Assembly (NCBI GenBank): GCA_044892525.1
Contig: CM097885.1
Location: 1,614,001 to 1,678,000, forward strand
Length of the DNA: 64,000 nt
Reading direction: 5' to 3'
Source of the DNA: Schmidtea polychroa
Lineage: Eukaryota
The notes under the pieces were generated by a model. The model was given only the letters and a program-made list of their open reading frames with translations. It searched no databases and was not told the origin of the DNA. Below are positions 3 through 25,604 of this stretch, piece after piece. The number at the start of each line of letters is the position of its first letter. Within the stretch, counting starts at the first letter, position 1. Position numbers and translations under genes: made by a program.

Positions 3-3000
3 GCAGTAAATTCAGACCACAAATTAACGTATTTGCAGCAGCTTGAATTAGAAATTCAAGAAGAAAGAAACAGGTTAGCAAGGCTAACAACAAATGAAAC
101 TGATGGGTACGATGAAAATGAAGGTGTTTATATGACGTCAGCCAGAAAAAGGCGAAATAAAAATAATTATGTAGAACTTGAAGTGTTGATGCTTCAAGAA
201 AGTCCACAGGAGGACAACGAGGAAAAGACTGTGGTCATAGAACCAGAGGTCTGTGAGGGTTTACAGGTTTCACCCAGGAAAAATCTAGTGGCTGTGGCCA
301 TGGAGCCAGAAGCCAACAGAGAAATAGAAGGTTTACCGGTTTCACCAGTTAAAAATCGTAAGGCTTTGGACATGGATCCAGTAGCTAAGGAAATTGTTCC
401 AACAGGAGTTTTGGAAAAAAAATGGGCTTCGGTCAGTGAACCGGAAGTTCTTATAGCCACATCATCCATGCGAGGTGAGTGTGGTAGTGAACCAATAAAG
501 GTTCGAGAAACATCGAAAGAGGAAAGAAATCCCATCGATGACTGTAGAAAAATACTATTACGCAAGAGCGTATGGCAAAGAGAAATGAGACAGAAATTGG
601 AAAATATTCGTTTAAACCCCGTTAATGAGAATGAGGTTGACAAAGTAATAGATATCATATCAGAGTTAGACAGAAATGAGGAATATTATCCAGAACTGAG
701 AGAAATTCTGAGAAATATTGGCCTAAATTGGAAACAAAGAGAGAATCTGGAGGATTCTACAATTTTTGTATCTTTCCCAAAAGGTTGTTTTCGTAGATAT
801 ACAATTAAGCCAAGTGAAAAGGTAGAAGCATTGGCAAAGAGAGTTTCTGTGGTAAAACCTCAACAGAGATGCAAACTATATTTACTGGGAGAAAGATTAT
901 TAGAGGGAGAAACCTTGTTAGATTGTGGTATACTACCAGGGAAAAATATGGTTATAAAAGCAAAGTTTCACAAGGAAACTGTTACAGTAGTGGACTTGGA
1001 TAATGTCCTTACTATAAGCGAGATTGAAATTGATCAATTAAATCAAATATCAGCCGTACCACATAGATTGGGAATTGAACTGATGAAAAACCCAAGAGAT
1101 GGGGAAGCCATTAAGATGATAATGGATTGGATACTGGAGTTGCGAATCCCAGTAGATACTCTTAGAGAGATAATGCCATTGGTGGTGCCTTTAGTAAAAG
1201 AGACATCACAATTCCAGACACAAGCAAAGATGCTGTTGATTAAAAATGGACATGCTATTAGACATTTGGAAGGTAGACAAGGTCCAGTGATGTTAGATAT
1301 CAGGATACCCAGGAGAGGACACCTGATACAACAATTCTCATGTTATCATAGGGTAAAGAAACTGAGAAAAAGGATATCAGAAATATTAAAAGAGTCATTC
1401 CTCATAATGATACATGGTTGTCAGGTGGATGACGACGAATTTCTAGTAGATGTTGGATGTTTTCCCAATGAGGAAACAGTTGTATTAATATTACTGGTAG
1501 AGTTTCCAGAGGATGAATGGGCAACTTTGAGATTGCCAGATAATGCAGAAATGGAGGATGAAACAGTACATCCTGAGCAAAAACAAGTAGACGGGAATAC
1601 TCATCAGGAACCCGTAACCACAGTAGATTTAGATGAAGAGATAGATAAATATCTCAAGGAACTTGATAACACTGAAGACGAGTTGGTCGAAATATTTCCT
1701 ACAGAGGAAGATAATGAAGTACAATTAAATCGAGATGAAACAAACATCGGAGCTAGTACATCGCGACAAGTCGAGCCACCAAGAGAAAGAGTGAGCCCGA
1801 AATTAGTCGAGAATAAAAAGAAAAGGGAGAGAAGGGGTAGACCGAGGAAAAGTCAAATGAACCCACCTCCAAGAGAACTTCTAAAACCAGTTACAATACA
1901 AAATGTAACTAAGCAGGCTCTAGCAGGGATAGCTAGCCAAATCGATAAAAGCGTTGGAGACGCTAGTGACAAAACGGAAACATGGAAAAGACTGAATCAA
2001 ATCTTACGACTGATTAAGCCCGATTGGCAAATCAAGAAAGATAAAAGTGTTAATGTTGACAAAATTGCAGAAAAAGTCAAGAAAGCTATGGAAAAGATTC
2101 CAGGAAGCACTACGGAACAGGAGATGTTCGAAATAGCAGGGCAATTCATAGATGAAGGCCTGACGAAAGGGAAAATGATAACGATTCTAGCCTTAATGTT
2201 TAAAAATGCATTGAGCATAATTAAAGATGATTCGTCGAAAATTCCAGCAGCCATAGACAAGCTGACTGATATCATCGAAGTGAATTTCAGAACATGGATG
2301 ACTGAGCACAAGTTTTGGGATATAAAAGAAACGAAAGGAAAATATGAATTAAATGAAGAATTGTTGACAGAAAATATTTCAAGTAGTCCACGGGGAACAG
2401 GTGGATTTACTAGTTGGATGATGATGTTGTTGGTAATGATGGGAATACTGCGACAGACAAATTCCCTAACGGCATATGATTGTAGTGAACCAATACTATC
2501 GCGAATCTACTCATTAGTTGACACAGTGGAATGCAAGGAAGCATATCCAGATAAAGTTGCAAAAAGGGAAGACGTAGAATATCATGTTTATCAGCAAACA
2601 GAGTTTTACAGAACCAGAGTGAGGGAATGTCGAATACAGAGAGCGACGTTCGAATATTACTGTGGATCGAATAGTTATTCAGCATTTTTAGGAGCTAAAC
2701 TCATTCCTATACCGTTAATCATCCCACCAGAGGATTGTGTAAATGCTTTCCGGTCAAAAACAGTCAAAATAGATCAGGAGGTAACAATTACCGCGGAAGA
2801 GGGGAAAAAGTTGGGTATAACTATTACCCGGGGTGGACCGATAGCAGAAGATGGTTCTTGTCATGGTAGAAAGAAAGTTAGAGGTTCTAATGTAGTAAGC
2901 TATGTGGTAACAGTTGAGGACTACACAGTAGAGCTGATAGAGTACGAAGGAACTTTCGAAGTATCCACGGGAAAAATGATGTCTCATCCAGAATGCAACG

Positions 3001-6000
3001 TGAAATATGGTTATTGTAAAACCAGTTTAGCAGTATTAACGTACCAATCAATGAGAGATTTTTGTGATTTAGGATACCTGAAAAAGGTAGTATTTTCAAG
3101 GCTAGATGGGAAAAGTTTTACGTCTCAGGATTCACAACAAAGTGGTTGGGGAGACAAGATAACTCACAAAACGAAAAAGGAAGTAGTACCGGAGAAAAGC
3201 ACAGCAGTAGTATTAGTCTCCAAGGACCCAACAGATGCAATTCGTTTAGTCAGAAAGAAACAGACAACGAAATGTGGTGTACCAATATTTGAAACCAACT
3301 ACAAGGGAATATACTTAGCATACAAGTATGTTCCAGCAGCAGAATCATTGCATCTATCAGATATTAAAATAGCCAAGTATATCAATAATAAGATTGATTT
3401 CTTGTATCATGATCTGCAGAAACAATTATTAGATGTCTATCAGGAAGTGATCCTGAACGACTGTCGTTTGAATCGGGAAATAATACGGAATAGATTAGCA
3501 ATATCTATAGCTAATCCGGATCTAATAATGCCAATGTTGACAGAGGAAGGAACATTCGGCAGAATTTTGGGCGAAGCAATTTATAGCTATCAGTGCAAAG
3601 CAATAGAGGTGGAAATTACCAAATATGATCGATGTACATTGGAGTTACCAGTGAAATATAAAGGAAAATTGAGATTCCTGATGCCAGTATCACACCAGCT
3701 ATTAAAGGAGGATACCTCACCATTAACAGCAATTTGCAATCCAGCAATGTCACCATTATACAAAATTAACAATATTTGGATTTCGTTGCCAGATAGAAAA
3801 CCGCCTTCAAAACCAGTTGAAGTGCTTCAAGCGACAAAGTTAGAAACTAAAATGGAGTTTCAACCATTAAACGAGATGTCAAAAGGAGGAGTATATACTC
3901 CGGAAGATATTGAAGAAGCTCGGAGAGCAATCGTATTTCCCCAAATCAGAGATAGGGGAGTGACGGAAATAATAACAAGAATCTATCAATCATATGATGG
4001 AAAACCGGACTATAACTTATTATTTGGACCAGAACATTATAAACAAGCTGCATCCAATGTAATACGGAAAATCTGGGGTAGATTTACAAGCTTTGGCATT
4101 TTTGTAGCAGGATGTTCAGGTATATATGCAATAGTGATGATATTGAAAATAATCATATCGCAATTATTTTCTACCTATAGTATCTTCAAGATCGGGGGAT
4201 GGTCTTGGAAGTTGCTACTAGGAATGTGTCCAGTTTGTGCAGATTTTGCAGTATTTCATCATCATAATAAAGAGATTAAAAGAATGAAGAGACAAACTAT
4301 AAAGAAGCATGAGTTAATAATGTATGAACCTAGTCATCGAGACGATGACAATTCTGACGAGGGAGGTAACCTAGAGGGCTATGAGACCTCAGACAACACC
4401 TCAATAAAACCAGACAACAAAAAACCGAAATTTCAAAATTTTGAAAACAGTACTTTACAACAGTACCCTGTTAAAGCAAAAAGGAGGAAACGGCAGGAGT
4501 GGCCCGTAAATTACTTGTCTCCATACGAGGGTAGAAAAAAGATAATACCAGAACGAGTTGAAGAAGAAATGTTAAAGAGGCTCGAGTTTAGAACGAATAC
4601 AGATATATCACCATCTACCTCATACCCAACGTATAAAATGAAGTTCGAGACAATGCCACCCTTGGGTACATCAGTATTTGAGATGGTACCGAAATATCCA
4701 TTTAGCACGTTGGAACGGCTAAAGGAAGAGTATAAAGAGGAAATAAAATCAGAAAATGACAAAGATAGTGATGATCAACAAAAGTTCAGAGACAATATTA
4801 GAGGAATCTCAACAATATTAATGGTCAATATGGGTAAAAAGACTCATAAACCTACGATTAAACTAAAAGTTAACAGGCATACGGTACATGCCATTATTGA
4901 TTCAGGATCAGATTTGACATTGATCGAAGCAAATTTATTAAATGAAAAAGAATTACAAGCAATAGTGCCGACATTACTTGTTGCATCGGGAGCAAATGGA
5001 CAACCTATCAATGTTATCGGAACATTAGATTGCGAATTAAGGTTGTGTGATCAAAAATTTAGACACGATATCAAGGTCACTAGACAATGTATGGCAGAAT
5101 GTATCGTGGGAATGGATATATTGAAAAAGTTAAAAGATATTGTATTTGATTGTGCAACAGGTGAATTAGTGAAAATGACTGGTAGAAAACGGAAAACCTA
5201 CAGTGTGGATGTAGTGTTTTTGGATAGAACGGTGACAATACCACCGAGGACCGAAACAGTTTGTTTCGTAGCAACACACCAAGAGGTGGAAGGAGATGTT
5301 ATTTTCGAACCCAGTGAGCAGTTCGTAAATAGGTATAAAACGCCTATGGTGCAAAACTTGGCAACAATACGGGGAGGAAGGATCCCGATTAGATTAACAA
5401 ATCTAGCGAGCAAATCATTGAGATTATACCCAGAGACTAGAGTGGGTAAAGTGATACAACTATCTAACATGCAGAAAGAGTCTGAATCGATATTATCAGT
5501 AGAAGAGGATGAACGAGATCCTGATATCGAATATTACGACGCACCGAGCTGCGATAGTAAAACCTTATCTAGAAAAGAAAATATCAGAGTCAATCAATTA
5601 TTACGTAAATATGACCAAGTTTTCGCAAAACACGAATATGACTTAGGGCAAGTTAATATTCTAGAGCATGAGATTAAATTAACAGAAAATAAACCGATAA
5701 AAATTCGCCCGTACAGAATACCTCAAAGCATACAAGGGTCCGTTGACAAACAAATTAAATTAATGCAAAAATATAATATAATCAGACCCAGTAAATCTCC
5801 ATATTCCTCACCTTTGGTGGTTGTAGCTAAAAGAGACGGCTCAGTCAGATTATGTAATGACTATAGGAAATTAAATGAACAAACAGTTAGTGATAATCAC
5901 CCGCTACCTTTGCTAGACTACATTTATGATAAAATGAAAAATTCAAAGTTGTTTACTGTGATGGATGCACAGAAAGGTTTTTATCAAATAAAGATGAGCG

Positions 6001-9000
6001 AAGACTCAATTCCTATGACAGGATTTTCTACAAGTAGTGATCATTTTGAATACTTAGTAATGCCGTTTGGACTAAAAGGAGCCCCTCCAACTTTCCAGAG
6101 GGCAATGAATATCATGTTGATGGATGCACATCACGCAATGGTATATATAGACGATATTATCATCTTCTCGGAAGACTTAGATAAACATTTGGATCATCTG
6201 GAGGACATTTTCAAAAGATTAATTATGGCAAACCTGAAAGTAAAGCCAAGCAAATGCAAATGGGCAGAATCGGAAGTGATTTACGTGGGGCATGTAATAT
6301 CACACGATTGCGTAAGACCAGATCCGGCGAACACGGATAAAGTAAAGAATTTCCCACAACCAGTGAATGTAAAACAAATCAAAGGATTTTTAGGGTTGAC
6401 GGGATACTATCGGAAATTTATACGAAATTTTTCAGCAATAGCTTTTCCTCTAACTACCTTAGAAAAGAAAGGTATAAAATTTTTATGGGGAGAAGATCAG
6501 CAACAGGCATTCGATAAGTTAAAAGATGCACTATGCAAACCTCCAATTCTACGATTTCCAGATTTTAAAAGACAATTCATGGTGATGACCGATGCATGCA
6601 CAAGAGGTATAGGTGCCGTTTTGGGACAGAAAGACGAAATTGGCGATGAGTACGCAGTAGCATATGCAAGTCGTGGATTGAAGCCACACGAAAAAAGTTA
6701 TGCTGTAATAGAATTGGAAGCATTAGCATTAGTATTTGCAGTGGAAAAATTTAGTCATTACCTATGGGGCAGAAAGGTAATTTTCTATACAGATCATAGA
6801 CCCTTGCAATGGCTGTTAAAACATAGAGACGAAGCATCAAAATTAGTAAGATGGGCATTGAGATTACAGCCATATAATATCGAAATTGTATATCGTAAAG
6901 GTAAAGCTAATGGTAATGCAGATGCATTATCACGAATGGAACAAGAGCCTGAGTTAGAAGATATAAAGGAAGGAAGATTAGAAGGAACAATCTTCATGCT
7001 AACAAGAGAGGCTAACACTTTGAGCGATATAGTAGAAGCACAGAAAAATGATGACGAAATCAATATGATCAGACAAGCTATAGAAGCAAAGGCCATACCA
7101 AATGAATTTCAGAAATATTGGGAGAAACATAAAGATAAATTCATATTGGAAGAAGGGCTAATCAAATACGTTGAATCAAGGGATAATGTAATATTAGTAC
7201 CAAAGAAATACAGAGAATCACTATTATTACAATACCACGACGGAGCACTGGGAGGACATCTCTCAGCTAGACATACACTGTCAAGATTAAAAATGAAATA
7301 CTTCTGGCCAGATATGAAAGATGATGTTAAAAAGTGGTGTCAATCATGTAAGATATGTATAACCAGAAGGAACACAGGCAGGAAACCACATGTTCCATTG
7401 AAACCAATGCCAGTACCGTCCTCGCCAATGGAGATGACTGCTATGGACGTACTAGGGCCGTTTAAAGAATCAAAAATGGGAAATAAATTTATCATAGTAT
7501 TTTGCGATTACTTAACCAAGTGGCCCGAAGCATTCCCAATTCCGAATCATAAGGCAGACACAATTGCCAGAATCTTTGTAGAACAAATAGTATTCAGATA
7601 TGGTGTTCCAACAAAATTACTTACCGACAGAGGAAAGGATTTCATGAGTAATCTGTTAAAAAGTATAAATGATTATTTTGGTATTTTAAAATTAAATACC
7701 TCACCATACCATCCACAGACGGATGGATTGGTAGAAAGGTTCAATGGAACCTTGGCAAACATGTTATCATCATACGTAAACTCAGGTCAGACGGACTGGG
7801 ATGTACACATACCATCGTGTTTGTTTGCGTACAGAAATGCTGTTCATTCAGTAACAGGAGAAACACCTTTCTATCTGATGTATTTAAGGCATAGCAAGAT
7901 GCCAGTCGATCTTATATTTTATCCGAAAGCTTCACAGAATTGTGACGAAGGAAATTACTTATTCGAGATGAGAGAGAGAATGCAAGAAGCCTGGGAGAAA
8001 GCAGGTTTGAACATTCGTTATAACCAAGAAACAATGAAAGAATATCATGATCGTAAAGCGAAGGATCATGGGTTTTTGGTAGGAGATTATGTCATGTTAG
8101 AAGGACATTACAACAAAAAAGGTTTATCTCCAAAATTAATGAGAAATTACAAAGGGCCGTATCAAATTTTGAAAGTCACAGAAACCAATTTAGTCTTACA
8201 GTTAGTGGCAAACAGAAAAGCCGAACCGATAATGGTTCATGCAAACAGATGTAAAAAGATAGCCCCACCAGAAAAGGAGAAACCAAAATCAGAAATCAAT
8301 GAATTCGAAATAGTTAAGAAATCGAAAAAGAAAACGTTGGAATCATACAAAAGTATCCTAAAAGGACAACCGGAACGATACCCCTTACGATCTCGGCAAA
8401 TCCCGAAAACAGTTACATTTCTAGCAGTGATTAGTTGTGTTATGATGATTGGACAGGCATTCGAGGTATTCACACCTAAAGCCAGTCAACATCCAGATAT
8501 CGAATATCAACGAACAGATAGAGCGTTCAGATTTCATTTAACGAATATACAATGGCACAGATATGATTTATATTTGGTAGCTGCTGAAAGAGGGATATCA
8601 TTTCACTTGAATACATGGGATCGAGTAAAAGTAATAGAAGGACTTATGCCGAATACAAGTTATCTATTAGAAATCAAAACATTTTTTGCAGATCCAAACG
8701 TTTTTGCAGACGGCGGAGATTGCGTAGATAAAGCAGCATGGATTTTGAAGACTGCAAAATTTACCAAAAAAGTAGAGATTTCATATCTCAGGCAGATAGT
8801 TAGATTCACTCATCCACGGTGGAAAAGAAATGACACATCTTCCACTCACGATTGGAGGACGAATAATAAAATTGCGCTAATCGTCATATTAGAAAACGAC
8901 CAGCGAGTCGAGAGATTAGTGCTCAACCATGCGTATCTAAGTAGAAGATGGAAAATCAAACCAGACACCGTGACAAAAGCGAATATTTCGTATTTGGAAT

Positions 9001-9386
9001 TTACGGAGAGAACCGGTTGGTATACAATATATCAAGAAATAGTAAATCTAATACCTCCCACAAAGGGAGAACTAACTAGCAAAGAAGGAAAGGCTAGATT
9101 AGTAAATATTCCTGGTTGTAAAGGAATAAATGCTTTAGATTGGTTTAGTATTAGAAAGGTAGCGAGTGTAAAACAGCCCCGCATAACTAAAATAATTAAT
9201 AATTGTAGTTGTCAAAATACGTTAAAGGGGGCAGCGAGGGAGAAAACGCCAACATGGCTATTGTTAATTATGATAGGGGGAGTAATTTGCATGATTTTAA
9301 TTTTGCTTTTAACCACCCTATGGATGTTTAGATTAAATATACGAGATATGCGTTATTGGGAAAATATTTACGAAACCGAGGTATAG
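3..9386 (+). CDS. Giant retroelement polyprotein (5'-partial): UBL-UBL-AT-hook-Bcl2-like-Env(class III)-PR-RT-RH-IN-FN3/TM
   Basis: Frame is open from nt 3 (the TTG at 33 is only the ORF-finder start) to TAG 9384-9386. Motifs: IIDSGS ~4899, YIDD ~6143, TDAC ~6588, H-x6-H...CxxC ~7236-7358, MDVLGP/LLTDRG/VERFNG integrase DDE, GPY ~8154. Confidence 0.95.
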   Translation, partial: AVNSDHKLTYLQQLELEIQEERNRLARLTTNETDGYDENEGVYMTSARKRRNKNNYVELEVLMLQESPQEDNEEKTVVIEPEVCEGLQVSPRKNLVAVAMEPEANREIEGLPVSPVKNRKALDMDPVAKEIVPTGVLEKKWASVSEPEVLIATSSMRGECGSEPIKVRETSKEERNPIDDCRKILLRKSVWQREMRQKLENIRLNPVNENEVDKVIDIISELDRNEEYYPELREILRNIGLNWKQRENLEDSTIFVSFPKGCFRRYTIKPSEKVEALAKRVSVVKPQQRCKLYLLGERLLEGETLLDCGILPGKNMVIKAKFHKETVTVVDLDNVLTISEIEIDQLNQISAVPHRLGIELMKNPRDGEAIKMIMDWILELRIPVDTLREIMPLVVPLVKETSQFQTQAKMLLIKNGHAIRHLEGRQGPVMLDIRIPRRGHLIQQFSCYHRVKKLRKRISEILKESFLIMIHGCQVDDDEFLVDVGCFPNEETVVLILLVEFPEDEWATLRLPDNAEMEDETVHPEQKQVDGNTHQEPVTTVDLDEEIDKYLKELDNTEDELVEIFPTEEDNEVQLNRDETNIGASTSRQVEPPRERVSPKLVENKKKRERRGRPRKSQMNPPPRELLKPVTIQNVTKQALAGIASQIDKSVGDASDKTETWKRLNQILRLIKPDWQIKKDKSVNVDKIAEKVKKAMEKIPGSTTEQEMFEIAGQFIDEGLTKGKMITILALMFKNALSIIKDDSSKIPAAIDKLTDIIEVNFRTWMTEHKFWDIKETKGKYELNEELLTENISSSPRGTGGFTSWMMMLLVMMGILRQTNSLTAYDCSEPILSRIYSLVDTVECKEAYPDKVAKREDVEYHVYQQTEFYRTRVRECRIQRATFEYYCGSNSYSAFLGAKLIPIPLIIPPEDCVNAFRSKTVKIDQEVTITAEEGKKLGITITRGGPIAEDGSCHGRKKVRGSNVVSYVVTVEDYTVELIEYEGTFEVSTGKMMSHPECNVKYGYCKTSLAVLTYQSMRDFCDLGYLKKVVFSRLDGKSFTSQDSQQSGWGDKITHKTKKEVVPEKSTAVVLVSKDPTDAIRLVRKKQTTKCGVPIFETNYKGIYLAYKYVPAAESLHLSDIKIAKYINNKIDFLYHDLQKQLLDVYQEVILNDCRLNREIIRNRLAISIANPDLIMPMLTEEGTFGRILGEAIYSYQCKAIEVEITKYDRCTLELPVKYKGKLRFLMPVSHQLLKEDTSPLTAICNPAMSPLYKINNIWISLPDRKPPSKPVEVLQATKLETKMEFQPLNEMSKGGVYTPEDIEEARRAIVFPQIRDRGVTEIITRIYQSYDGKPDYNLLFGPEHYKQAASNVIRKIWGRFTSFGIFVAGCSGIYAIVMILKIIISQLFSTYSIFKIGGWSWKLLLGMCPVCADFAVFHHHNKEIKRMKRQTIKKHELIMYEPSHRDDDNSDEGGNLEGYETSDNTSIKPDNKKPKFQNFENSTLQQYPVKAKRRKRQEWPVNYLSPYEGRKKIIPERVEEEMLKRLEFRTNTDISPSTSYPTYKMKFETMPPLGTSVFEMVPKYPFSTLERLKEEYKEEIKSENDKDSDDQQKFRDNIRGISTILMVNMGKKTHKPTIKLKVNRHTVHAIIDSGSDLTLIEANLLNEKELQAIVPTLLVASGANGQPINVIGTLDCELRLCDQKFRHDIKVTRQCMAECIVGMDILKKLKDIVFDCATGELVKMTGRKRKTYSVDVVFLDRTVTIPPRTETVCFVATHQEVEGDVIFEPSEQFVNRYKTPMVQNLATIRGGRIPIRLTNLASKSLRLYPETRVGKVIQLSNMQKESESILSVEEDERDPDIEYYDAPSCDSKTLSRKENIRVNQLLRKYDQVFAKHEYDLGQVNILEHEIKLTENKPIKIRPYRIPQSIQGSVDKQIKLMQKYNIIRPSKSPYSSPLVVVAKRDGSVRLCNDYRKLNEQTVSDNHPLPLLDYIYDKMKNSKLFTVMDAQKGFYQIKMSEDSIPMTGFSTSSDHFEYLVMPFGLKGAPPTFQRAMNIMLMDAHHAMVYIDDIIIFSEDLDKHLDHLEDIFKRLIMANLKVKPSKCKWAESEVIYVGHVISHDCVRPDPANTDKVKNFPQPVNVKQIKGFLGLTGYYRKFIRNFSAIAFPLTTLEKKGIKFLWGEDQQQAFDKLKDALCKPPILRFPDFKRQFMVMTDACTRGIGAVLGQKDEIGDEYAVAYASRGLKPHEKSYAVIELEALALVFAVEKFSHYLWGRKVIFYTDHRPLQWLLKHRDEASKLVRWALRLQPYNIEIVYRKGKANGNADALSRMEQEPELEDIKEGRLEGTIFMLTREANTLSDIVEAQKNDDEINMIRQAIEAKAIPNEFQKYWEKHKDKFILEEGLIKYVESRDNVILVPKKYRESLLLQYHDGALGGHLSARHTLSRLKMKYFWPDMKDDVKKWCQSCKICITRRNTGRKPHVPLKPMPVPSSPMEMTAMDVLGPFKESKMGNKFIIVFCDYLTKWPEAFPIPNHKADTIARIFVEQIVFRYGVPTKLLTDRGKDFMSNLLKSINDYFGILKLNTSPYHPQTDGLVERFNGTLANMLSSYVNSGQTDWDVHIPSCLFAYRNAVHSVTGETPFYLMYLRHSKMPVDLIFYPKASQNCDEGNYLFEMRERMQEAWEKAGLNIRYNQETMKEYHDRKAKDHGFLVGDYVMLEGHYNKKGLSPKLMRNYKGPYQILKVTETNLVLQLVANRKAEPIMVHANRCKKIAPPEKEKPKSEINEFEIVKKSKKKTLESYKSILKGQPERYPLRSRQIPKTVTFLAVISCVMMIGQAFEVFTPKASQHPDIEYQRTDRAFRFHLTNIQWHRYDLYLVAAERGISFHLNTWDRVKVIEGLMPNTSYLLEIKTFFADPNVFADGGDCVDKAAWILKTAKFTKKVEISYLRQIVRFTHPRWKRNDTSSTHDWRTNNKIALIVILENDQRVERLVLNHAYLSRRWKIKPDTVTKANISYLEFTERTGWYTIYQEIVNLIPPTKGELTSKEGKARLVNIPGCKGINALDWFSIRKVASVKQPRITKIINNCSCQNTLKGAAREKTPTWLLLIMIGGVICMILILLLTTLWMFRLNIRDMRYWENIYETEV
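756..972 (+). other. Ubiquitin-like domain 1 within polyprotein
   Basis: TIFVSFPKG..YTIKPSEKVEALAKRV..QQRCKLYLLGERLLEGETLLDCGILPGKNMVIK aligns by eye to ubiquitin (IFV..[34 protein letters not shown]); no C-terminal GG. Confidence 0.7.
1284..1500 (+). other. Ubiquitin-like domain 2 within polyprotein
   Basis: VMLDIRIPRRGHL...RVKKLRKRISEIL..FLIMIHGCQVDDDEFLVDVGCFPNEETVVLILL has the UBL pattern hxhxGxxhxDDxxLxDxG. Confidence 0.5.
1829..1850 (+). other. AT-hook / NLS-like motif
   Basis: KKKRERRGRPRK contains the canonical AT-hook core RGRP. Confidence 0.6.
1905..2325 (+). other. Bcl-2-like (BH3/BH1/BH2) helical domain
   Basis: LAGIASQID (BH3-like); FEIAGQFIDEGLTKGKMITILAL (BH1-like, cf. FxxVAxELFxDGxNWGRIVAL); NFRTWMTEHKFWD (BH2-like, cf. 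WIxxxGGWD) at the expected BH1-BH2 spacing. Confidence 0.55.
2406..4260 (+). other. Env-like class III fusion glycoprotein (chuvirus G / herpes gB-like) with internal signal peptide and C-terminal TM
   Basis: Signal WMMMLLVMMGILRQTNS|LTAYDC; CRIQR..YYCG; YINNK; GEAIYSYQC..CTLELPVKY..FLMPVS..C..W..GGVY cysteine pattern; TM FGIFVAGCSGIYAIVMILKIII. Confidence 0.85.
4851..8250 (+). other. pol: Pol region: aspartic protease, reverse transcriptase, RNase H, integrase (Zn finger, DDE, GPY)
   Basis: DSG; RLCNDYRKLN, MPFGLKGAP, YIDD; TDAC, ELEALA, TDHRPL, NADALSR; HHCC, D-D-E, GPY. Confidence 0.97.
8409..9386 (+). other. Second type I membrane protein fused after integrase (signal peptide, FN3-like ectodomain, TM, short tail)
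   Basis: TVTFLAVISCVMMIGQA|FEVF signal; VIEGLMPNTSYLLEIKT FN3 signature (LxPxTxY); TM WLLLIMIGGVICMILILLLTTLWMF ~9255-9330; tail ends YWENIYETEV*. Confidence 0.7.
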
Positions 9387-9586
9387 GGGGAAAGTCTCAC
9401 CATATACTAGGAAGTGTAAATATATATAGTTATTTATTTCATATGTTATTTATATTAGTATGTAGACTAATGTGGGCTCAAATGAGCATCGGTAAAATCA
9501 GACATCAGCGTATGTCGACTTTGGTTACCCTGCGAGGGTCTATCACGAAAGTGATAAAAGCTGTTAATTATTTTATTTTTAGAAAA

Positions 9587-11659
9587 ATGAATTATAACAG
9601 AGAATCAAAGCCGCCAGTCAAAGCAAATCGACGACACCCATTGGCAACGTACAATTCCCAAACTCGAGTTGAAACGGAAGTGTATAGCACCTATAAAGAA
9701 GAGTATGTATATCGGTTCATCGGAACCACGGTAGCAGCAAAGATGAATCACCTCACCTCAAACTATTGGTATTATCCCAGGAGAGTGGATATTCCAAACG
9801 ACTTCAAATTCCCAGGAGGGCCTCGAAGGCAAATGATGGTAACGGTTGTAAATAACCAAGGTAGATTAAAATTGGCGGAACTATGTAGAGAGTATGGTTC
9901 ATGTCCGAAAGTAGAAAACATTTGGATCCATGCGATCAATAGGCCATTTACTGTGTTTATGGCGGGTTTAGAGCTACCTGTTGAATTAGAAAAACAGTGT
10001 ACTCTGGAGATATACCACGCTGATGGACGAGAACGGAATATTATGATCCAGGCAGCAGCGGTGGACACCATAATCGTAGTGGAAATCTTAGACTTCAGGA
10101 AACCATACTCTATAGTCAGCAAAAACGAGCCAACTTGGATTTATAATGTAAATGAAGCTGATATACAGCAGTGTAAATCATTCGTGAGGAAGAAGTTAAC
10201 CAAAGCCGAGGAGGATGAGGCTACAATTTTCATATCGGCAGGTTTTGCCAAATCCCGAATCGAATTGAAGGAGACAATTATCCAAATCGCAATTATGGAT
10301 ATGAGAGGAAATAATTTATTGAGTGCGGTAGTGACTCCCAGAGATCCTGTAAAACACTACCAAACGCACCAATACAAGTTAAAGGAACCCGACATTAGAG
10401 GAAACCTCGACGAAGATGATTGTCATCATCTGATAAGAAAGATCTGCGATAAGAAAATACTGGTAGGTATTTTACTTAAAGATCTGATCTCGGTAGCCAA
10501 TCTACCAGTGCAGCGAATTTTGGGTATTCGTGACCTTTCTGCAAATAAACTATTGGAAACCAGAGGAGTCCCAAAGATCCATGGTCATTACAGATTGGGA
10601 TTCCTGACAAAAACTTTCCTGCGTACGGTTCCCGGAGAACCAAGGAATTTAGTGGTCACCAATGAGGCACTGGCAATACGTGCTGTTTATTTACATATCA
10701 GAAACGAATGGTTAGACCATATCACGATACCTCAGGAGGAATTCATTTCCGCAACTACAGCAGCGATAGTTGAACAAGAAATGACGCAGAAGAGGAGATT
10801 ACCTGAGCAACCATCTACATCAGAGCAACCCCAGCCCAAGAGGAAATCACCTGTGGATCTACCACCGCCTCCAGCCATATCTATTGGAGAAGAAGATGAA
10901 TATGAAACATGTGCTAGTGAAATAGAGACAGCAAAATCACCTAAACAACCATCAGGAGCTGCCTATCAGCCAAAGGATAAATCGGATAATGCGGTCAGAA
11001 AAGAAAACCCAGAAGGAGGCAAGGTGAAAAAGATGTTAAAGAAAATGTTACCCATTAAAAGAGACAAATCGAAGTTAAAGTTGAAGAAAGTTGTTAAACC
11101 GTCGGAAGGAACGACAAAAGATACACCCAGCGGTTCGGAAGATAGGATTATTAAACCTCAAAAGATATTCAGCGAACCAGATGATGACATTATGGAAGTT
11201 GCCTTTCAACCTCCGGTTAAGGAGATGCAGGAAGCAATAAAGGTTAAATCTGAACCTGTGGTAAGGCAGAAATTGTTAAAGATTGCCAAGGAGAATATCA
11301 TCAAGAAACCAGTTTCGGTTGATGTGGACGGTTTCGAACCAATGTGGTACAAACGTCCGGATAGTAAATGGAAACCCAGAGCGAAGGAGTATGACTGCCA
11401 ACCAGTCACGAGAATGGCAGTCAATAATAACCAAAAATATGATGTTTATGACGTAGACGGGATCCCTTACGTGGTGTCTACAGTCATATTAACAAGTGCT
11501 CTGGATGGTAAGCCTTTAGCAGTGAGTTTTGAGCCAGATGTCTTACAGAAGAGGAAGAAGAAGTTGTTGCAGCAATACGTTATTGCGAATAGCTACAGCA
11601 CAAAGGAAGTGCACCTTTACAAAGTTCCAGACCCAGATCCCGATGATCTGGATATCTAA
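9587..11659 (+). CDS. Accessory ORF2 of the LTR element with degenerate DEDDh (REX4/ISG20-like) exonuclease domain and a low-complexity charged C-terminal half
   Basis: Open frame 9356-11659; likely ATG 9587 just after a polypyrimidine-AG acceptor (9581-9582). QIAIMDMRGNNLLSAVVTP..V.HYQT, KILVG, IRDLS, NEALAIRAVY at ~10220-10700. Confidence 0.8.
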   Translation: MNYNRESKPPVKANRRHPLATYNSQTRVETEVYSTYKEEYVYRFIGTTVAAKMNHLTSNYWYYPRRVDIPNDFKFPGGPRRQMMVTVVNNQGRLKLAELCREYGSCPKVENIWIHAINRPFTVFMAGLELPVELEKQCTLEIYHADGRERNIMIQAAAVDTIIVVEILDFRKPYSIVSKNEPTWIYNVNEADIQQCKSFVRKKLTKAEEDEATIFISAGFAKSRIELKETIIQIAIMDMRGNNLLSAVVTPRDPVKHYQTHQYKLKEPDIRGNLDEDDCHHLIRKICDKKILVGILLKDLISVANLPVQRILGIRDLSANKLLETRGVPKIHGHYRLGFLTKTFLRTVPGEPRNLVVTNEALAIRAVYLHIRNEWLDHITIPQEEFISATTAAIVEQEMTQKRRLPEQPSTSEQPQPKRKSPVDLPPPPAISIGEEDEYETCASEIETAKSPKQPSGAAYQPKDKSDNAVRKENPEGGKVKKMLKKMLPIKRDKSKLKLKKVVKPSEGTTKDTPSGSEDRIIKPQKIFSEPDDDIMEVAFQPPVKEMQEAIKVKSEPVVRQKLLKIAKENIIKKPVSVDVDGFEPMWYKRPDSKWKPRAKEYDCQPVTRMAVNNNQKYDVYDVDGIPYVVSTVILTSALDGKPLAVSFEPDVLQKRKKKLLQQYVIANSYSTKEVHLYKVPDPDPDDLDI

Positions 11660-11906
11660 CCCAAGAGCGTTGCCACCCAACATGTGTCGTCAAATTCAAA
11701 TGTGTACAAAATGACTTAACTATTATTTGAGTTGTGTTTTTCAGTGTTCTGACATTCATTATTTGTGATCTGAAACATTTATATTTTTTGTGTTTTGTCT
11801 TATTTGATTAATTTTTATGTTTTATTGTAATACTGTTTACCAAAAGCCTTCTTTAGTCTTGCTTTTATCTTGTTTTCGAGACGAAAATCTTTTAGGGGGT
11901 AAGACT

Positions 11907-12982
11907 TGTTAGGGATAGGCCTTGGGGCCTGGAGTGTAAAATAAATAAAGAATTACTATATTTAGAAACAGTATAAATAAAAATTACTGAAAATAGAAGA
12001 TAGGTTTTACTAATTACTATTAATAGATTTAGGTAATATATAGGAATATTTGATAATACTATTACTATATATAGTAATTATAAAATTACTATTAATAAAA
12101 TAAATAATTAAAATGTGATATAAATACTGGTTCAAAACAAGAACCAGGGACGATAAAAACATAGACAATAAAATTGACGATAATTTGCGGACGGGAAAAC
12201 TGACAAGAAAGTTCGAAAAGGAATTGAAACAATAATTTAGAAAATTATTATCATTTTGAAAACGAAAACGTGATTAAAGAATCACTGTGTCAATTATTAA
12301 GTTTAGAAGTTCAACATTTGTCTACAACAATAAAACGTGATTAAAGAATCACGGTGTTCATCAATCAACCAGACGATAACTCAACTCAAATTTCAGATCG
12401 TTTTACAAATTAGAAAGTGACTATAAATTGTCAAACGGAACAAACTAGAATCAGAGAGAATAATTTTGGAGAGAAAATTGGAACAGATTCGTGAAACAAT
12501 AGAAAGGAGCTATTAATCTAGAAGGTAAAAGAAGTTCTGTACTTGAGTTGTGTAAGGATAAATTATTATCCTTGTGAAGTGAGATAATTAAAATAAAGCG
12601 AACACAAAGCACAGACAGCGGCTTTCGTGTTACCTGGTAGCCCCAAAATCAGCCCTCTTACTTTACCGTCATCTTTTCAATTTATTTAGCGATCGTTGTG
12701 CTACACAGGAGCCATCGATTTCTTGCAGGCTGTGGTAAACAGTAAGGATTAATAAATCCGTTTTCTTGTATTCTTTGCACATATATTATAAATATCTGTT
12801 GTAAATTATTAAATACATTTTTATAAAAGAGAAAGGCGTTTGTTGTTAATTCAGTGATTTAAAAACTCATATACGCAACCACATTAAATAACTTATTTAT
12901 ATTTATTTTTATTTATTTATCTTAATTAAGTTATTGGAGTCATTTGTGTTAAGATCTGTAGTCCCCGTTTTTCGATCTTAAC

Positions 12983-12983
<1 letters not shown>
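11907..12983 (+). repeat. 3' LTR (1077 bp)
   Basis: Starts TGTTA right after the PPT and ends TAACA (inverted termini); TATA-like TATAAATA ~12119; AATAAA at ~12592 and ~12751; followed immediately by (AAT)n. Confidence 0.85.
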
Positions 12984-22471: not shown

Positions 22472-23867
22472 TAAAACAATAAAATGATAATTTAAGCCTT
22501 TTGCTGCAAATAATGTATTTAATGAAAGAATTTTCGACTATACGATAGTCCTTGTCAATCTCCTGGAATTTAGCAATGTTCTTCCCCCAAATACCTTTCA
22601 ATCTTTCTTTTATTTCCTTTCTCTTAATTCTCATTGGTTGTAAATCTAATGAAATGTTTTACTAAAAACTTTTAAAATTTTTACATTTAAAATTTCAAAA
22701 TGACACAAACTAAAAATTTTTAAATTTTTTACAGCTTCTATAATTAGCTTCTAGAAGCCTAATAAAATATTTGAAAATATTTTAAATAAAGCCTCCAATA
22801 ACCATTTATATATTCTATTTAAATATTTCAATAAATGTGTCAATTTTGATTTTCAAAACCTATTTTTTAAAATTTTTTTTATATTATTCTAATTATTACT
22901 TTTTAATTTATTCTATTTTTTTTAATTTCTTTATATATTGTCAGTTATTCTCAAAGTCAATGACAACAGATCAAATTCATGATTTCATTGATTTCTTCTT
23001 TAGTGTTGATCTTTGGCTGTCTGTTTATGATGAGAATTGCTTCTTTGATTCTGACATTTTTCTTTTGGATGTTTCCATTAGCTATGATTTCTATTGAAAT
23101 ATTTTTTCTTTCCTCTGTTGGCTGACACTGCCGGAGATGTCTGCCCAACGAGGATGTTCCACCAGGATCTAGATGTTCTTTAACTCTTTGGTGCAAGGTC
23201 CTGAGGGTACTTCCAATGTAGATTTCATTGCATACATTGCACGTGATGCAATAGACGATGTTTTTCCTTCTCAACTATCTCCATGATTTTGTGACAGACC
23301 CCACCAGGATCTAGATGTTCTTTAACTCTTTGGTGCAATGTCCTGAGGGTACTTCCAATGTAGATTTCATTGCATACATTGCACGTGATGCAATAGACGA
23401 TGTTTTTCCTTCTCAACTATCTCCATGATTTTGTGACAGACCTTTGAGAGTGTTGAATCTAATTCTGCATCAGGATTTGGTTGATAGAGTTTATCTGTGT
23501 TTATGTATACTGGGAGCTGGTTTTCGCTATTTTCATTTTCATGCGGCATTGTATTGTTCCATTTGATCTGGTACGCAATGCGACAAAGAGCTGTTTTGAA
23601 ATTGAGGATGGCTGCTTCATCTATTTCTCTGTTTATACTGAACTTTGGTCCTAGTGAAAGTAATCCTTTTTCACCTTTGGATAGACAATTTGTGAGGTCG
23701 GTTACTAGTTCTTTGTTCACTGTAATGCTTTCGTTTCCGTCCAGTGTTTCATTGTTCGTAACAAGGCCTGCTTTGAGCTCCTTTTTTCTCAAAAGGTGTT
23801 TGATTCTTTTGTCAAATCGCAGGGAATAATGTGCTTCTGCTGTCATGAAGGATTGTCTTTTATTTTA

Positions 23868-25604
23868 TATCTCTCAAACCTAACGAAAGACGAACAGGCA
23901 ATATTAAATTCCCTTAAAAAGAAACCGTACGTTTACTTACCAAGTGACAAGGGGGGAGAATTTTGCATTATAGAGAAGAATCGTTACTGTGAAGCTGGTT
24001 ACGAACACCTCGGCAACATCGAAACATACAAGAAAGTCAGCCGCATGTCACCAAACACCATCGAAATGAAGATCAACAAAGTATGGAAAGCCATAGCTTT
24101 GGAAATGAGGCTCAACAACAACAGCTTCGTCACAAAAAATTCTGATCTTCCTAACTTCTACCACCTAATTAAAACTCCCAAAGAGGGTCCTGGTATCAAA
24201 ATTAGACCCATAGTGTCCAACAAAAATGGACCAACAACTAAAACAAGTTGGCTCCTTGCAAAGATCTTGAAACCTTTATTGGACACGATACCACACCATC
24301 TTCAAAGCAGCGACTGCCTCATGACAAGACTAAATAATAACATGACTTGTCATAGAGAATTCCAATACCCATTTAGTCTTGATGTCGTATCACTATACAC
24401 ATCTGTCGAACCAACAGAGGCTATTCAATGTTTAGAAAAGAAATTAAGAGAAAGCAACTTGTTAATAAAGGAAATGAATATCGAGAATATCACCAAACTA
24501 CTTACTGTTATCCTCGAGAACACCTATTTTACCTTTGAACAAAATATCTATAAACAAGTTAAAGGTCTGCCTATGGGTTCTAGCATATCAGGACTGCTAG
24601 CAATCATCTTTATCGATAACCTCGAACGACAGACACTGACGACCATACAACCCATCGGTTTCTATGCAAGATATGTAGATGATATCTTCATCACGACCAA
24701 AAACAGAAAAGAAGCGGAGTAAATATTTCATACATTCAATGCGGCTCATCAAGATATTAAGTTCGAAATCGAATATCCGGAACAAGATGGATCCCTCAAT
24801 TTATTGGATTTGAGAATCAAAATAGAAGAAAATACTCCAACATACGGGTTCTACAGAAAACCAGCTCGCAAAGAAATATTTATGCACCAAAGATCAGCGC
24901 TTCCATACTTACAGAAAGTACATGTCATAAGAAACGAAAAACGAAGAATAGCCAATCGATGCACGGAGAAAAACGAAAACTTTAAAGAACAATCAAATTT
25001 CAATAAAATCCTACACCGAAACGGATACCAAGGTGAGGACATTGAAAGAATGAATTCTACCCCAAGAAGATCTAGGGAATCAACACAAAAGAATCAGAAA
25101 TATTTCTATCTGAATATCCCATTCATCAGTGACATACTCGACTTCAAGATCCTGAAAGAACTTAAACGTACCGGTCTTCCAATTCGGATAGCACATAAAT
25201 CTTGGACATTGAGAAAGGCTCTGGCAGGCAACATAAATAGAGAGAACAATTGCACAATGAAAAACTGCCAGACACCGAAAGATATGTGCTTTAGAAAAAA
25301 CATCGTCTATTGCATCACGTGCAATGTATGCAATGAAATCTACATTGGAAGTACCCTCAGGACCTTGCACCAAAGAGTTAAAGAACATCTAGATCCTGGT
25401 GGAACATCCTCGTTGGGCAGACATCTCCGGCAGTGTCAGCCAACAGAGGAAAGAAAAAATATTTCAATAGAAATCATAGCTAATGGAAACATCCAAAAGA
25501 AAAATGTCAGAATCAAAGAAGCAATTCTCATCATAAACAGACAGCCAAAGATCAACACTAAAGAAGAAATCAATGAAATCATGAATTTGATCTGTTGTCA
25601 TTGA
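23868..25604 (+). pseudogene. Penelope RT/GIY-YIG ORF, 5'-truncated, with one in-frame TAA (24720-24722)
   Basis: SDKGG, KIRPIVS, SLDVVSLYTSV, GLPMGS, RYVDD, YRKP, VYCITC..C..YIGST.R.L..R..EH; the two ORF-track pieces are in the same frame. Confidence 0.92.

Follow-up and report, generated by a model that had tools for sequence, protein, structure and literature searches.

General features of the element

The window analysed in this study is a stretch of 64,000 nucleotides from the genome of the planarian Schmidtea polychroa (C1:1614001-1678000; the assembly is 781 Mb, with four chromosome-sized contigs), and it contains a retrotransposon with long terminal repeats (LTRs) whose 5' end lies just upstream. 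In our judgement this element is likely to be a full-length, recent, enveloped Ty3/Gypsy copy of the group formed by Burro and the 'Smed errantiviruses'. It would encode one giant polyprotein that is threaded through the endoplasmic reticulum (ER), and a second open reading frame (ORF2) with an ISG20-like domain. The polyprotein frame, ORF1, joins Gag, two ubiquitin-like domains (UBL1 and UBL2), a Bcl-2-like domain, a fusion glycoprotein, Pol and a second membrane protein.

The frame and the ends of the element in the window are as follows:

3..9386, plus strand: part of ORF1 in the window, 3127 of 3495 codons, open at the 5' end of the window
11890-11906, plus strand: polypurine tract, adjoining the 3' LTR
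11907-12983, plus strand: 3' LTR, 100% identical to the 5' copy outside the window

Inspection of the upstream locus showed that the ATG of ORF1 is 1104 nt before window base 3, so that the whole ORF1 has 3495 amino acids (aa), and most of Gag is also upstream. The 5' LTR was found at C1:1611684-1612760. Both LTRs are 1077 bp long and have TG...CA ends. The 5' LTR is followed, after a two-base TT spacer, by a primer binding site beginning with TGG. The element is about 15.3 kb long and was inserted into an (AAT)n tract; a 4-bp target-site duplication, ATAA, is possible but ambiguous.

A preliminary description of this DNA, made from its letters alone, had reported a giant uninterrupted frame followed by ORF2, a polypurine tract and an LTR, and had advised recovery of the 5' end. 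All of these parts were located, including gag, the primer binding site and the 5' LTR. The LTRs, primer binding site, polypurine tract, Gag with CCHC knuckles, and Pol in the order protease (PR), reverse transcriptase (RT), RNase H (RH) and integrase (IN) make this a Ty3/Gypsy-type LTR element. The identical LTRs and the many intact copies in the genome show that it is young, and it is probably active, as had been supposed.

Gag, Pol and the fusion glycoprotein

Four CCHC knuckles were found in the first 400 residues of ORF1 (Pfam zf-CCHC, E 9.6e-15), while the match to the retrotransposon-gag family was weak (E 0.14). On the window part of ORF1 the Pfam families come in the order PF24664, RVP, RVT_1, RT_RNaseH, Integrase_H2C2 and rve. 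This agrees with the earlier description of a Gypsy-type Pol with an in-frame glycoprotein ahead of it. The rve match, at 31.9 bits, is slightly below its cut-off of 32.6. The features of the glycoprotein and of Pol are listed below (TM, transmembrane segment):

2412..2474, plus strand: signal-like hydrophobic segment ahead of the glycoprotein, placed by motif; the mature end is predicted near Y-D-C
2475..4187, plus strand: predicted class III fusion glycoprotein, ectodomain 2475-4091 and TM 4092-4187 (PF24664 and hydrophobicity)
4200-4256, plus strand: second hydrophobic, Cys-rich stretch past the glycoprotein TM (hydrophobicity)
4845..5135, plus strand: retroviral aspartic protease with DSGS (RVP E 7.2e-7, 29.9 bits, cut-off 20.7)
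5826..6875, plus strand: reverse transcriptase with YIDD, and RNase H (RVT_1 2.8e-30, RT_RNaseH_2 1.2e-33, RT_RNaseH 2.3e-34)
7197..7715, plus strand: integrase, zinc-binding domain and catalytic core (Integrase_H2C2 1.6e-19, rve 1.6e-7)

The family PF24664 (Monjiviricetes_fusion) matched with E 7.1e-82 and 275.8 bits against a cut-off of 27, over profile positions 240-626 of 653. An additional match to profile positions 6-63 is weak alone (E 0.011, 14.1 bits). By this profile and by the flanking segments, the product is a predicted rhabdovirus/chuvirus-type class III fusion glycoprotein of the Monjiviricetes type, with a signal before it and a TM behind it, as the preliminary description had put it.

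Membrane segments were placed with a 19-residue Kyte-Doolittle scan (cut-off 1.5) and motif look-up, not with a dedicated predictor. ORF1 has four hydrophobic segments, 2412-2474, 4092-4187, 8409-8465 and 9252-9329, the last of which is a strong TM. The first is under the Kyte-Doolittle cut-off, and its position is conserved in two other families of the genome. The segments can be read as alternating signal, stop-transfer, signal and stop-transfer, which would place Gag, the UBLs, the Bcl-2-like domain and PR-RT-RH-IN in the cytosol and both ectodomains in the lumen.

Ubiquitin-like, AT-hook and Bcl-2-like domains

Because the Pfam scores of the accessory domains were sub-threshold, we built profiles from relatives: A4 has 15 rows (both UBL segments and relatives), and A1 has 11 retroelement sequences. 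An AlphaFold model was also made of window 540-2402 (621 residues, 20-row alignment); its confidence, as the block mean of the predicted local distance difference test (pLDDT), is 69-96 over residues 1-320. The predicted domains of this region are:

540..746, plus strand: helical region ahead of UBL1 (AlphaFold: three helices, model residues 2-64, block pLDDT 70-79)
747..977, plus strand: UBL1, beta-grasp (Pfam, phmmer, VIA-align)
978..1271, plus strand: helical domain between UBL1 and UBL2 (block pLDDT 70-89), conserved in relatives
1272..1505, plus strand: UBL2, with a conserved D-D-D-E-[YF]-L-x-D-x-G motif (profile A4, VIA-align, Foldseek)
1833..1850, plus strand: AT-hook core RGRPRK in a basic stretch (motif)
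1965..2342, plus strand: Bcl-2-like helical domain, region of the Bcl-2 homology motifs BH1-BH2 (profile A1 against the PDB)

UBL1 matched the Pfam ubiquitin family below its cut-off (E 7.6e-4) and polyubiquitin in phmmer (E 3.5e-5), and its model superposed on ubiquitin in VIA-align with Z 9.3 and a root mean square deviation of 1.5 A over 71 residues. For UBL2, VIA-align gave SUMO1 (Z 12.0, 1.5 A, 72 residues) and the C-domain of ISG15 (Z 11.9). Profile A4 reached polyubiquitin (2.9e-33) and ISG15 (7.1e-9) in the PDB, and all 60 matches listed were ubiquitin, ubiquitin-derived or ubiquitin-like. Foldseek with the accessory model gave linear tetra-ubiquitin as the best match (1.1e-8), together with di-ubiquitin and ISG15, in the range 1e-8 to 1e-6. 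Two ubiquitin-like domains are predicted consistently by sequence profile and by modelled fold. The paired UBL labels of the preliminary description are borne out, and its reservation that structure searches might give no support does not apply to them. Neither domain ends in a C-terminal GG, so UBL1 and UBL2 would be built-in, non-conjugatable domains and not modifiers.

The AT-hook label also stands, since RGRPRK is present; similar GRP cores were seen in the library relatives P0009, P0006 and P0026. For the Bcl-2-like part, profile A1 reached BFL-1 (2.1e-5) and Bcl-xL (5.6e-5) in the PDB, and 59 of the 60 matches listed belong to the Bcl-2 family. The alignment covers BH1-BH2 up to a W-x(4)-G-G-W motif which is kept by relatives. 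The Foldseek and VIA-align lists for the 621-residue model are taken up by the UBL domains. The sequence profile points to Bcl-2-like identity, as had been proposed.

Copies in the genome and relatives in protein libraries

A genome search with the accessory region, with 70 of 2449 candidates scored, gave 74 rows of 74-100% identity. At least ten copies, the window's own included, share a stop-to-stop frame of 3516 codons (10 of the 74 rows), and are spread over three chromosome-sized contigs; a further copy, 87% identical, has a frame of 3513 codons. The ORF2 frame, with 775 codons, remains open in 11 of 65 rows. Since a 10.5-kb open frame in DNA of 37% GC recurs at the same length in 10 of 74 rows, chance is excluded.

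Two library relatives were used as genome probes; one gave 150 rows (2320 candidates) and the other 121 rows (1513 candidates). Two other abundant families have open frames of 3334-3336 and 3435-3437 codons (below, the 3334-aa and the 3437-aa family). The accessory region is 24-25% identical to the 3334-aa family at nine loci, over query residues 45, 59 or 64 to 631, and matches the 3437-aa family in two pieces of 26-29% and 26-30% identity. Both families read UBL, UBL, acidic linker, Bcl-2-like domain with GGW, signal and glycoprotein.

The accessory region was also compared exhaustively with 1.84 billion library representatives, and 35 proteins came out at E<=1e-3, which were shorter or partial; among library proteins of 1719-5473 aa none had this region. 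Twenty of the 35 were scanned, and PF24664 was present in eight, three of which join the glycoprotein to an aspartic protease and two of which join it to CCHC knuckles.

An alternative explanation, in favour of which we found nothing, is a chimera of assembly or a one-off fusion of unrelated genes. We give it practically no credence. It is refuted by the ten frames of 3516 codons on three chromosome-sized contigs, by the identical LTRs and by the same order in related families. The worry that other copies might lack the modules was therefore not confirmed: the same frame is in at least ten copies and the same modules are in two families of only about 25% identity.

The genome has 1807 matches to the 15-nt complement of the primer binding site (L011:4767-4781), 460 of them forward and 1347 reverse, and 0 to its reversed control. 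Among the roughly 100 of these 1807 matches that were listed, several adjoin copies of other long-ORF families, which suggests that a single primer tRNA serves those families.

In one predicted library protein, P0003 (791 aa), a decayed related element, with the Bcl-2-like part and glycoprotein fragments, continues into an ion-channel domain (PF00520, E 5.6e-14), probably because the gene model is a chimera made where an element had inserted.

Membrane protein after the integrase

8409..9383, plus strand: predicted membrane protein after the integrase; signal-like 8409-8465, beta-rich ectodomain 8466-9251, TM 9252-9329 and a short tail

The preliminary description had read this last part of ORF1 as a signal, a fibronectin type III (FN3) domain and a TM. 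The signal-like segment, a beta-rich ectodomain and the TM were found again, but neither the FN3 label nor the reading as a receptor mimic found confirmation. The ectodomain has 263 aa and matched no Pfam family at E<=5, except for Insulin_TMD, a family of the TM segment (E 0.1). A profile search against the PDB gave no match to the ectodomain, the single row (E 0.43) covering the TM, and a profile search of a library of 5.8 billion proteins (those of 191-676 aa) gave no relatives. AlphaFold with a 3-row alignment drew strands and a TM helix at pLDDT 37.9, which is an unusable model. The Atlas language-model search gave FN3 membrane proteins at 0.90-0.91, a weak lead, with a recognition value of 2029 against the tool's mark of 2300.

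In the 3334-aa family a counterpart of 19% identity follows the integrase; it too begins with a signal-like segment, is about as long, and has a TM and a tail in E-T-R-L. Between the element and its sister subfamily the post-integrase part is 65% identical, against 87-88% for the accessory region. The tail after the last TM has 18 residues and ends in E-T-E-V.

In full, the polyprotein ends with Y-E-T-E-V (window 9369-9383) and the member of the 3334-aa family at L067 (frame 810..2399, minus strand) with Y-E-T-R-L. The E-T-E-V and E-T-R-L tails resemble the class I PDZ-binding tails of some viral oncoproteins.

Fragments of the post-integrase protein also occur in a tandem array outside the window (G000:C3:106.49-107.23 Mb, period about 2.87-2.88 kb), a satellite derived from part of a retroelement. 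Its units carry residues 171-348 of window 8340-9383 at 87-89% identity, in frames of 187-188 codons.

ORF2 and its ISG20-like domain

9356..11659, plus strand: ORF2, in the -1 frame relative to ORF1, 767 aa from a TTG; overlaps the last 31 nt of ORF1
10229..10723, plus strand: predicted ISG20/REXO-like (DEDDh-type) exonuclease-like domain of ORF2 (profile A3 against the PDB)

The first ATG of ORF2 is at 9443, 57 nt past the ORF1 stop. No Pfam family matched ORF2 at E<=5, and its only relative in the library is P0038 (31% identity). Profile A3, made of these two proteins, matched ISG20L2 (7yw5) in the PDB with E 1.8e-6 and 29.7 bits over 149 residues; the other row had E 0.21. In this alignment G-H-A-I-H-N-D and G-H-S-S of the ISG20L2 chain face G-I-L-L-K-D-L and L-V-V-T in ORF2. 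The two G-H histidines, presumably catalytic residues of DEDDh exonucleases, face I and L, and the Exo I stretch is unaligned. The nuclease domain of ORF2 is probably degenerate and its catalysis lost; this view is provisional, and it makes the earlier term pseudo-nuclease plausible.

Frames that resemble ORF2, of 761-762 codons, occur in another abundant family of the same genome (75 of 1274 candidates were scored). The 3334-aa family has a 106-codon coiled-coil-like frame within about 100 nt of the ORF1 stop (L067:389-709, minus strand), and no ISG20-like ORF was found in the 800 nt seen past its ORF1. Therefore the genes downstream of ORF1 differ between families.

The N-terminal domain of ORF2 (window 9674-10255) had small viral kinase-like clusters (RIO1, Kdo, APH) as nearest neighbours in Atlas, at 0.92-0.94, but with few features in common (125-146 of 256), a tentative lead.

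Selection on the extra domains

The UBLs, the Bcl-2-like domain, the last ectodomain and ORF2 could be inert passengers which were carried by chance on an active Gag-Env-Pol core. In favour of this, the BH2-like motif is degenerate in this copy and the nuclease motifs of ORF2 look dead. However, the ratio of non-synonymous to synonymous substitution (dN/dS) is low. With simple pairwise Nei-Gojobori comparison against the sister subfamily (three pairs and one pair), it was 0.12 over the accessory region. Taken singly, UBL1 and the part between the UBLs each gave 0.07, UBL2 gave 0.24 and the Bcl-2-like domain 0.14; for the final 348 codons of ORF1 the value was 0.18. The extra domains are under purifying selection, as measured by the dN/dS analysis that had been recommended. 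Furthermore, the same domain order is kept in families of about 25% identity and in library proteins of 23-51% identity which are distinct from every searched family of the genome, and frames like ORF2 persist in another abundant family. With these observations the passenger explanation becomes very improbable. The preliminary description took the cargo to be captured; it may have come from the host or from other viruses.

Synonymous divergence from the sister subfamily is mosaic, being 0.12-0.17 across UBL1-UBL2 and 0.83-1.27 in the linker with the AT-hook, in the Bcl-2-like domain and in the final 348 codons (window 720-2612 compared with L038, and 8340-9383 with L066). The pattern suggests recombination between subfamilies.

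Proposed expression and topology of the polyprotein

A conserved frame of 10.5 kb in which hydrophobic segments alternate would be explained most economically by threading through the ER, with processing by signal peptidase and the element's protease. The ORF1 polyprotein would be made on the ER, where the first signal would send the glycoprotein ectodomain into the lumen. After cleavage by signal peptidase, Gag-UBL-UBL-Bcl2 would stay in the cytosol, held in the membrane at its C-terminus by the signal, and the Bcl-2-like part would then be built like the tail-anchored Bcl-2 proteins of cells. The glycoprotein TM would bring the chain back to the cytosol for PR-RT-RH-IN, the second pair of signal and TM would display the last ectodomain, and the element's own protease would make the cytosolic cuts. 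The Bcl-2-like and UBL parts may delay death or degradation of the producing cell, and the glycoprotein may serve entry, from cell to cell or from animal to animal.

Polytopic polyproteins of the flavivirus type are cut by signal peptidase and a viral protease. If the ER reading is right, the polyprotein here would work alike, with alternating signals and stop-transfers, enzymes in the cytosol and ectodomains in the lumen; no relationship is meant, as the element here is reverse-transcribing.

The main rival is separate expression, in which spliced or internally initiated subgenomic RNAs would make the glycoprotein, the post-integrase protein and ORF2, and Gag-Pol would avoid membrane insertion. 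Retroviruses and insect errantiviruses as a rule express env separately. ORF2 is in another frame, with its first ATG past the ORF1 stop, and therefore at least one product needs its own expression route. The account in PMC13524379 also handles the GAG, ENV and POL parts of these elements each as an ORF or segment of its own. But all junctions are open in ten copies, and frames of 3334-3437 codons are open in families that are only about 25% identical, so it is hard to hold that the joins are never translated. Three library proteins join glycoprotein and protease, and the alternating hydrophobic segments give a consistent topology. We regard separate expression as unlikely, and threading of one polyprotein through the ER remains the reading that we prefer. 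Among the joints listed from four Logan-contig runs, one of which is only guessed to be RNA, none has GT..AG ends; none occurs in all four runs and six occur in two or three, a result that speaks neither for nor against splicing or expression.

Several points weigh against this reading and the domain calls that go with it. The 503-aa glycoprotein ectodomain (2475-4091) has no N-x-S/T site, which is odd for a secreted viral glycoprotein, while the flanking cytosolic parts have 3 and 5 such sites and the last ectodomain has 4. For the last ectodomain the model is unusable and the PDB search gave no match, and the FN3 label is unconfirmed. The Bcl-2 family of Pfam (PF00452) scores under its cut-off of 31.4, both here (E 0.012, 16.6 bits) and in the library relative P0027 (E 8.9e-4, 20.2 bits). 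The profile call for this domain is at E 2e-5, and a designed helical protein, second in the list, ties the best E-value. The Bcl-2-like part of the AlphaFold model has six helices at a block pLDDT of only 48-71, and GGW of the relatives' BH2-like motif reads KFW in this copy. Finally, the loss of the ORF2 nuclease is read from one alignment and from the presumed catalytic residues, and is provisional.

Comparison with known elements

The gag-env-pol layout with UBL and BCL2-like domains is already in print for the planarian element Burro, from 2018-2019, and the element here is no new kind. The preliminary description had presented env before pol in one polyprotein, together with host-like domains, as novel. 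This premise was wrong, because that layout is reported for Burro (PMC6431247) and GAG-ENV-POL elements are catalogued in PMC13524379.

Burro elements (GYPSM1/Burro-1 to -4) come from Schmidtea mediterranea and Dugesia (Grohme et al. 2018, through Arkhipova and Yushenova 2019, PMC6431247). According to the account in PMC6431247, they have thousands of copies, and ORF1 carries an N-terminal Gag with CCHC knuckles, a Ubi2/SUMO-like motif, a BCL-2-like motif, env, PR, dUTPase, RT, RH and IN, with accessory ORFs in addition. Env is between BCL2 and PR and matches mononegavirus fusion glycoproteins, and domains linked to apoptosis and ubiquitination are prominent, as the authors remark. Our element is like Burro, as described there, in being a planarian gypsy-like LTR element with one giant ORF1, a CCHC Gag, UBL and then BCL2-like domains, an in-frame env before PR-RT-RH-IN, accessory ORFs, and copies in the thousands. 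The two differ in size: Burro has more than 30 kb and an ORF1 of 4873 aa (PMC6431247), whereas the element here has about 15.3 kb and 3495 aa. At Pfam E<=0.1 we found none of the Burro-1 motifs MATH_TRAF_C, BIR, ankyrin and dUTPase, nor in particular a dUTPase between PR and RT where Burro has it. Because of this lack and of its length, the element is regarded as a compact relative and not Burro-1 itself. The post-integrase membrane protein and the ISG20-like ORF are not in the Burro account of PMC6431247, and they may be described in Grohme et al. 2018.

The article PMC13524379 (2026; preprint 2023) describes GAG-ENV-POL Ty3/gypsy elements with a class III ('HSV/gB-type') Env in Platyhelminthes, Nematoda and Bryozoa, including Smed_errantivirus_1 to 6. 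Our element is like these Smed errantiviruses in being Ty3/gypsy, with a class III Env before Pol and multiple intact copies. Compared by eye, the Env stretches of Smed_errantivirus_1 and 2 shown there match the 3437-aa and 3334-aa families, and Smed_errantivirus_4 is nearest to the element, with about 70% identity over about 250 residues; these matches point to a host of the genus Schmidtea. Judged by the Env stretch shown, the family of our element is not among the six listed. The words ubiquitin, Bcl, exonuclease and accessory do not occur in the main text of PMC13524379. For the Smed elements that source lists no tRNA type, and it places a platyhelminth element next to Cer1.

Glycoprotein capture by LTR elements is described in other hosts too. 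Non-canonical endogenous retroviruses of nematodes have a captured RNA-virus glycoprotein (Sacco et al. 2022, J Gen Virol 103:1739, cited in PMC13524379); they are likewise metaviruses with an RNA-virus glycoprotein gene before pol, and differ from our element in the phylum of the host. Mosquito BEL/Pao elements, and some gypsy elements, with chuvirus-derived glycoproteins likewise combine an LTR element with a class III glycoprotein of the Monjiviricetes type, but BEL/Pao is another retroelement superfamily in another host, and we noted no UBL or Bcl-2 modules for it in the accounts of PMC7642597 and PMC13524379.

Juno and Vesta of bdelloid rotifers likewise have an ORF (ORF3) downstream of pol that resembles a 3'-5' exonuclease of the DEDD superfamily, and inactive RNA-binding DEDD derivatives are discussed for them (PMC5408684). 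Their ORF3 is RNase D-like (DEDDy) with the invariant residues intact except for a change of DEDD to DEED, whereas ORF2 here is nearest to ISG20L2 (DEDDh) and looks degenerate. Beyond the Burro, errantivirus and Juno/Vesta papers, our literature search gave nothing relevant on a retrotransposon Bcl-2 homologue or an ISG20-like ORF.

This copy contributes an example that is compact, very young and apparently intact, in which the layout can be read cleanly and the topology is self-consistent for co-translational ER threading. It also adds a conserved post-integrase membrane protein and a conserved ORF2 with an ISG20-like domain. We speculate that the compact planarian elements are 'complex' retroviruses with an undescribed conserved gene set: a tandem-UBL/Bcl-2-like module that is tail-anchored by the glycoprotein signal, a fast-evolving second surface protein with an E-T-x-[VL] end, and a dead ISG20-like RNA-binding ORF2 shared by several families. 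This proposal is tentative and, taken as a whole, unlikely. If it is true, the elements would have a two-protein envelope, of a fusogen and an attachment protein, and tools against host cell death and against RNA decay or silencing. Planarians are tractable by RNA interference and have pluripotent stem cells, and the element may be a practical system for studying how a retroelement makes cytosolic and lumenal proteins from one frame. It also lets one ask whether viral-style anti-apoptotic and ubiquitin-like modules help a transposon to persist.

Other features of the window

In the region 26317-49864 of the window a 13-bp unit, CAAGGATGCCCAG, is repeated about 1814 times, forming an array of 23.5 kb with 85% matches. 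Its GC content is about 54% with a very strong excess of A over T, while the rest of the window is AT-rich, and on the minus strand the array gives rise to numerous long open frames that are spurious. Directly before this satellite, at 23709-25604 on the plus strand, there are two adjacent open frames of 337 and 293 codons.

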